From the NCBI GenBank assembly GCA_951406725.2, contig OX597815.1, positions 170,004,001-170,068,000 on the forward strand: 64,000 nt of DNA, in the 5' to 3' direction. The DNA is from Octopus vulgaris. Taxonomy: Eukaryota. A program made the translations under genes and the position numbers. How positions within the stretch are numbered: position 1 is the first letter of the stretch; each line of letters opens with the position of its first letter. Positions 51,325 through 51,732 of the stretch are shown here, one piece after another. The notes below the pieces were generated by a model. That model was given only the letters and a program-made list of their open reading frames with translations, was not told the origin of the DNA and searched no databases.

Positions 51325-51732
51325 TTTCACAATTGACGGATATTTGTCCTCATCTTGTTTGTTGTAAACACAACATTTTGGCTCATATACCCACCAGACT
51401 TCATCAGGTGTCTTGGGGGAAATTTCGAACCTGGGTTCTCATTCCTAAGGTATTTTTCGATGTTGTTGTTGTTGTTGTTGTTGTTGTTGTTGTTGTTGTT
51501 GTTGTTGTTGTTGTTGTTGTTGTTGTTGTTGTTGTTGTTGTTGTTGTTGTTGTTGTTGTTGTTGTTGTTGTTGTTGTTGTTATTATTATTATTATTATTA
51601 TTATTATTATTATTATTATTATTATTATTATTATTATTCAGGTGACTGCCTGGAATCAAACTTGGGATCTTGGGGTTAGTAGCTCACGTTCTTAACCACT
51701 AGGCCAAATGCCCGTGGGCATATGGCGTAGTG
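51325..51732 (-). mobile_element. Hammerhead SINE (family H), full length, with 5' fold-back
   Basis: tRNA-like head, long (AAT)n(AAC)n, body, HHR at about 51368-51412 (CpG-decayed GAAA). The head is followed by an inverted copy of itself (gggcatatggcgtagtgg). Confidence 0.85.

Follow-up and report, generated by a model that had tools for sequence, protein, structure and literature searches.

A 5'-terminal hairpin on one copy of a hammerhead-bearing repeat of Octopus vulgaris and its possible origin by cDNA fold-back

How a mobile element completes its insertion may be recorded at its 5' junction, and the locus described here raises the question of whether a hairpin at such a junction was left by a cDNA that folded back on itself. 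The earlier note on this DNA had proposed that the finished cDNA of a hammerhead-bearing repeat recurrently snaps back on a built-in palindrome and self-primes second-strand synthesis over a variable distance. The window, that is, the whole stretch of 64,000 nucleotides analysed (Octopus vulgaris, assembly GCA_951406725.2, contig OX597815.1, positions 170,004,001 to 170,068,000), has a GC content of 30-42% and is rich in microsatellites and dispersed repeats. The SINE-like repeats in the neighbourhood presumably resemble octopus SINEs, and the frames at 529-1516, 21029-21340 and 35411-35875, and those at 3334-5279 and 61610-61897, look by their motifs like mariner-type transposase and LINE remnants. 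Four pieces of the hammerhead-bearing repeat lie in the window, namely copy A (minus strand, about 51317-51720), copy B (minus), copy C (plus) and copy D (plus).

A terminal hairpin on copy A

Pairing and folding delimit at the 5' end of copy A a hairpin (51696-51733) that consists of a head arm (51696-51713), a 2-nt centre (51714-51715) and an inverted arm (51716-51733), with 16 of the 18 positions of its two 18-nt arms complementary. It is given without strand, as are the palindrome, inverted repeat, inversion junction and family stem-loop described below. Folded as DNA, the segment reaches -14.1 kcal/mol with a 4-nt loop (z -5.38), a value equalled by none of 200 shuffles, and GC-rich hairpins of this class give two matches in the window vs none in 20 of 20 shuffles, the copy-A locus and 18261-18303 being included in the window's listing. 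The description of the head and its own inverted copy as a hairpin in the earlier note is therefore confirmed, the structure being one base longer than was stated. The hairpin at 18261-18303, a perfect 21-bp terminal fold (z -10.7), sits on a copy (18283-18440) of another SINE-like repeat, which is abundant and of which the window contains about ten close relatives. This implies that terminal fold-backs here are not peculiar to the hammerhead repeat or to its palindrome. This second repeat (family D18) is also found as tandem units with a 184-nt spacing at 19384-19867 and 48029-48696.

Within the hairpin of copy A lies a family-encoded 12-nt palindrome (51709-51720) with 5-nt arms and a 2-nt centre, and the family-collinear sequence of the copy ends with the last base of this palindrome. 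It is followed by extra inverted bases (51721-51738, plus strand), comprising 13 nt copied from the head (51721-51733) and then a slipped 8-nt repeat (51723-51730 and 51731-51738, 7 of 8 identical), after which unrelated DNA begins. Of the 13 nt beyond the palindrome, 12 match the inverted head of copy B and 11 agree with the arm of A itself. The arrangement at copy A is that of a snap-back junction, with an inverted copy of the cDNA, a 5-nt terminal arm and a 13-nt extension. A second occurrence of the 12-mer, at 57328-57339 in copy B, had been reported in the earlier note as an independent instance of the same turn. The 12-mer is indeed present twice in the window, but no independent fold-back exists at 57328-57339, where the family continuation after the palindrome agrees with the 13 nt of A at only 2 of 13 positions. 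The self-priming proposal thus keeps its primer and template geometry at copy A and loses its second example, and inverted bases beyond the family palindrome are restricted to one of the two palindrome-bearing copies in the window. At the 2 of 18 arm positions that are mismatched in A, the inverted arm holds the family-majority bases and the direct arm deviates from them, as is expected if the two arms began identical and the changes arose afterwards in the direct arm. By itself, a cDNA that stops at the palindrome has a weak fold (4 bp, -2.6 kcal/mol), and no target-site duplication was found at copy A, the longest direct match there being an AT-rich one of 7 nt.

The remainder of copy A, all on the minus strand, is composed of a 73-nt tRNA-like segment (51641-51713), in which an A-box-like motif is intact and a B-box-like motif is mutated, an (AAT)n(AAC)n microsatellite (51461-51640), and a 3' part (51317-51460) that includes a degenerate hammerhead-like stem, a decayed minimal hammerhead and a short, tail-less 3' end. 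The copy is surrounded by the two arms of an 85-bp inverted repeat (51237-51319 and 51784-51867, 87% alike), of which no other copy is found within the window. This inverted repeat is likely to be an older target element; it could be an old MITE-like element into which copy A was inserted, or else target DNA duplicated in inverted orientation at insertion. Its outer ends look, to our eye, Tc1/mariner-like.

Anatomy of the repeat and its mobilization

Read in the sense direction, the repeat contains upstream sequence, the palindrome, the tRNA-like segment of 73 nt, which begins at the second arm of the palindrome, the (AAT)n(AAC)n tract, a degenerate hammerhead-like stem, the minimal hammerhead, and a 3' end that is either short or followed by an additional tail of about 35 nt. 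The tail is found on copies C and D and is absent from A and B. To view the family outside the window, contigs of four sequencing runs from three organisms (4 of 24 runs) were aligned to about 57060-57372 at 80% likeness, and 26,281-45,792 contigs were aligned per run, a measure of abundance and not of copy number. The same two classes of 3' end appear as loose ends in all four runs, one at 57092 (390-504 contigs) and a tailed one at 57095 (182-218 contigs). The hammerhead is broken at a different place in each copy of the window, none being intact, and the family-majority bases predict a minimal type I hammerhead with its core, an extra base after position 9, a G10.1-C11.1 pair and a palindromic helix III. 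This reading was made by eye from copies A-D and the majority bases, against the features given by Cervera and de la Pena 2014 (PMC4209133), where the minimal hammerheads of metazoan Penelope-like retrotransposons (PLEs) are likewise type I with a palindromic helix III and the extra base after position 9. A search of the window with Rfam gave no match at gathering score, and six weak, unrelated matches in 57060-57700. Copy D (14931-15045, plus strand) is 5'-truncated and tailed, has a 24-nt internal deletion through the ribozyme core, and shows no target duplication that could be found.

The likeness to a tRNA is modest, and it would rest on the layout of 73 nt and on the boxes, since an A box is present in copy A, a B box in copy B, and both in the family-majority bases. 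ARAGORN predicts no tRNA gene and no tRNA match is obtained at E <= 10 in 57060-57700, and a strict A-plus-B-box pattern at tRNA spacing has no match in the window. Because tRNA homology was not found and the family does not end at the tRNA-like head (see below), the repeat is not classed as a tRNA SINE; its end behaves like the end of a PLE. The features expected of a PLE are a minimal hammerhead near the 3' end and a 30-40-nt tail at one end only, and both are present. The repeat is therefore likely to be moved by a PLE. By eye, no frame for a reverse transcriptase (RT) or GIY-YIG endonuclease was recognised among the 111 frames of at least 90 aa in the window, a weak protein search with a 44-aa query for an autonomous partner returned no longer relative, and tandem head-to-tail hammerhead units are found at none of the three loci in the window.

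The most complete insertion is that of copies B and C. Copy B (57095-57364, minus strand) contains the short, tail-less 3' end, the hammerhead region, a short microsatellite, the tRNA-like segment (57260-57332), the palindrome and 25 nt of upstream family sequence. It is placed head-to-head with copy C (57362-57675, plus strand), which bears the tail of about 35 nt and lacks 39 nt including the palindrome, a loss with a 2-nt microhomology. A 12-bp direct repeat (57083-57094 and 57676-57687, plus strand) flanks the pair exactly, so B+C is likely to be a single insertion, and with its duplication, its tail at one end and its head-to-head arms it is a textbook unit of the PLE type. Among the three loci it is the only one in which an inverted 5' copy and a target duplication were found together, none being found at A or D. 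The inversion junction (57362-57370) is specific to this locus and is made of a 3-nt microhomology and 6 nt; B terminates in TTA, after which come six nucleotides reverse-complementary to the start of the family continuation (its first six bases). The two 5' ends therefore lie within 9 nt of each other and were joined through the microhomology. A fold-back of the C cDNA and the annealing of two separately primed cDNAs predict an identical junction here. Separate priming would be favoured by B ending at the common short 3' end of the family. Copy C shares none of the 7 positions at which B departs from the family majority, an observation that is uninformative about fold-back copying because all seven changes may postdate the insertion. 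A reading of the 31 nt between the palindrome and the head of C as an insertion in C was rejected, 25 of them being the upstream family sequence of B.

Comparison with endonuclease-bearing (EN+) PLE units (Arkhipova et al. 2013, PMC3846280; Craig et al. 2021, PMC8557442) reveals a common design: a head-to-head arm, a 30-40-nt tail at one end, (AAT)n/(AAC)n tracts, and a palindrome at the 5' end or junction that is read as self-priming. The target duplication is of 8-10 bp in those units and of 12 bp at B+C. Unlike them, the repeat has no attached RT/GIY-YIG frame that could be recognised in the window, a tRNA-like segment and microsatellite precede its hammerhead, and the inverted arm of copy A extends only 13 nt past the palindrome and lacks a 3' end. 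In the anole PLE (PMC11167929), reverse transcription starts at two adjacent sites that define the tail, and the open reading frame starts at helix II; two classes of 3' end and an ATG in the hammerhead core that opens a short frame are features in common with the octopus repeat. In the latter, the ATG opens a frame of 25 codons in copy A (51405-51330, minus strand) and is also found from 57553 onward (plus strand). Differences from the PLE hammerheads described in PMC4209133 and PMC11167929 are the GUU at the predicted cleavage site and the stop of the copy A frame after those 25 codons.

Non-coding mobile units with a hammerhead are also represented by the Schistosoma SINE-like repeats, which carry an apparent Pol III promoter together with the ribozyme (review PMC6765202), and by animal non-LTR retrozymes, proposed to be non-autonomous derivatives of PLEs (bioRxiv 10.64898/2026.07.22.740005). 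Those two groups are tandem and have canonical type I hammerheads, whereas the octopus repeat is dispersed, is 5'-truncated or inverted, and combines a promoter-like segment upstream of a minimal hammerhead with a PLE tail. Short non-autonomous Penelope elements have been noted in butterflies.

The palindrome within family sequence

If the palindrome marked the 5' limit of the family, as the earlier note assumed when it spoke of a head, homologous contigs would end there. Summed depth, used here for presence only because it gives no copy number and is distorted by the private changes of B and by edges, is 0.69-0.87 of that in the bin 57324-57334 at 57335-57345 and, despite an edge effect, 0.51-0.63 at 57346-57356, and then falls to 0-0.0002 at 57368-57372 (0-181 vs 245,000-648,000 at 57346-57356). 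Beyond 57364, one common 30-nt continuation is present in 91, 105, 92 and 94 contigs of the four runs. It is clear from this that the family sequence includes the palindrome together with the 25 nt behind it, and that it reaches upstream by at least 55 nt counted from the palindrome, or at least 62 nt counted from position +1 of the tRNA-like segment. The assumed limit is thus displaced. The palindrome is indeed built in, as had been proposed, since contigs of four runs continue through it, and for the same reason 57328-57339 is plain family sequence and the 12-nt turn simply part of the consensus, which leaves the claimed recurrence with one case in the window. Depth along B was also considered as a measure of 5' truncation and was rejected, as it dips at B's private changes and ends. 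Elsewhere in the window the upstream family sequence has no match at up to 3 mismatches. Around the palindrome, the family sequence forms an imperfect 14-bp stem-loop (57315-57351, centred on 57328-57339) of -8.3 kcal/mol (z -2.1; equalled by 8 of 200 shuffles).

Among the joints listed from the contigs, seven involve a change of strand or a step back, with upper boundaries at 57339, 57339, 57331, 57316, 57284, 57225 and 57146. The two with a boundary at exactly 57339 are not hairpin extensions; one, in run X6, is a head-to-head pair. The other, in run X2, runs from 57339 to 57094 and can be read as two units in head-to-tail order, the second beginning at the palindrome, and this one joint among those listed suggests that dimers of the repeat exist. 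Together with copy A, these two of the seven listed joints, which fall on the position named beforehand, hint that a subset of copies may start at 57339. A preferred end at this position would fit either initiation by Pol III 6-7 nt ahead of the +1 of the tRNA-like segment or a stall of the RT at the stem. Further copies were sought with five exact patterns or scans, and none was found in viral contigs, genome contigs or a first metagenome scan; one metagenome locus from a second scan (L001) matches a 20-nt pattern only and was rejected as a chance match.

Origin of the hairpin and its implications

The reading that we favour, with a probability of roughly 0.6, is that the hairpin of copy A was made at insertion, when its cDNA folded on the family palindrome and self-primed 13 nt before joining the target. 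According to the anatomy of the repeat and the literature, the RT and endonuclease of a PLE would mobilise it in trans, priming at the short or at the tailed 3' site. The cDNA of A would have stopped at the palindrome, where either the RNA started, by Pol III about 6-7 nt before the +1 of the tRNA-like segment, or the RT stalled at the stem. Its terminal 5 nt would then have annealed to their complement and the RT or a repair polymerase would have added 13 nt, the extension slipping once to generate the 8-nt repeat before being joined to the target without duplication. B+C could represent another outcome of the same machinery, in which two arms with separate 3' ends were joined head-to-head at a point 25-30 nt upstream of the palindrome, by way of the 3-nt microhomology, C losing 39 nt later or concurrently. 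Snap-back is supported by a single case, and among the contig rows listed no second copy with inverted bases past the palindrome was seen.

A different history, which we regard as unlikely but the most serious competitor, is that the original insertion at A was a complete head-to-head pair joined at the palindrome, and that the second arm was mostly deleted later, as long palindromes are unstable, leaving 18 nt. B+C demonstrates that such pairs form and lose central sequence, with 39 nt gone from C, the X6 joint is a pair of this kind with its boundary at 57339, and the absent target duplication at A also fits the later deletion of a longer inverted arm. Against this, no trace of another 3' end is present on the right-hand side of A, the inverted repeat at 51784-51867 lies only 50 nt away and its partner abuts the 3' end of A, so that the removal of the arm must have been clean, and the slipped repeat resembles templated synthesis.

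It is improbable that the 38-nt hairpin was instead inherited, as an invariant 5' terminus shared by a subfamily, from a source element with the hairpin already in its RNA. Fixed palindromes of 18 bp and, nearly perfect, of 38 bp at the 5' ends of pseudo-LTRs (pLTRs) of PLEs are reported by Arkhipova et al. 2013 (PMC3846280), who interpret palindromes at inverted junctions as the product of self-priming. In the octopus family, however, the other palindrome-bearing copy of the window lacks the hairpin, and none of the 24 loose-end rows listed (the six best-supported places in each run, the smallest with 62-88 contigs) lies at 57339. A minor class with a fixed end could be present outside those places.

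Quite improbable, too, is a correction of a quasi-palindrome, in which a template switch during replication or repair would have perfected the imperfect 14-bp stem without any reverse transcription. The stem is already present in the family at 57315-57351 and the extra bases of A are its perfected form, but A has no family sequence past the hairpin, and a second event, a truncation at the same place, would be needed. Palindromes are prone to fold-back artefacts of assembly or library construction, an origin that is very improbable here because a sequencing fold-back would give perfect arms and those of A differ at 2 of 18 positions, while three runs contain 57-65% of the sampled words of 51640-52400, a figure for the whole interval and not specific to the junction.

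Self-priming on the cDNA, the reading favoured for copy A, has a close parallel in R2 insertions, for which snap-back 5' junctions were defined in the PRINT paper of 2024 (PMC11371274). In that work, the cDNA serves through its 3' end as primer, and also as template, for additional synthesis before the 5' junction is formed, as proposed for A, and with one of the proteins this occurs mostly after full-length cDNA synthesis. The R2 case is an engineered one in the rDNA of human cells, whereas copy A is a single old copy of a natural, PLE-type repeat. The origin of the second strand and of the inverted arm in PLE insertions is called unresolved in PMC8557442, PMC11167929 and PMC3846280. Both palindromes at PLE 5' junctions and cDNA snap-back have thus been published, and the fold-back itself teaches little that is new. 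The novelty may lie in the carrier, a putative chimera of a tRNA promoter and a PLE end as judged from its sequence. No tRNA-promoter SINE moved by a PLE, nor a description of this family, was found in the literature searched; Repbase and Dfam lay outside the search and may list the family.

A more ambitious and tentative view, which we hold to be doubtful at present, is that the family is a true SINE that parasitises PLEs. A Pol III promoter of tRNA origin would have been captured ahead of the pseudo-LTR of a PLE, the resulting short RNA would start at the palindrome, and each full-length cDNA would consequently end in a hairpin primer. The repeat is abundant, and its 5' junctions could test snap-back against two-primer joining directly. 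If this view were true, a SINE parasitic on PLEs would have reached very high copy number in the genomes of several related animals, and the 5' ends of the repeat would constitute a large natural record of the way in which PLE insertions are completed.
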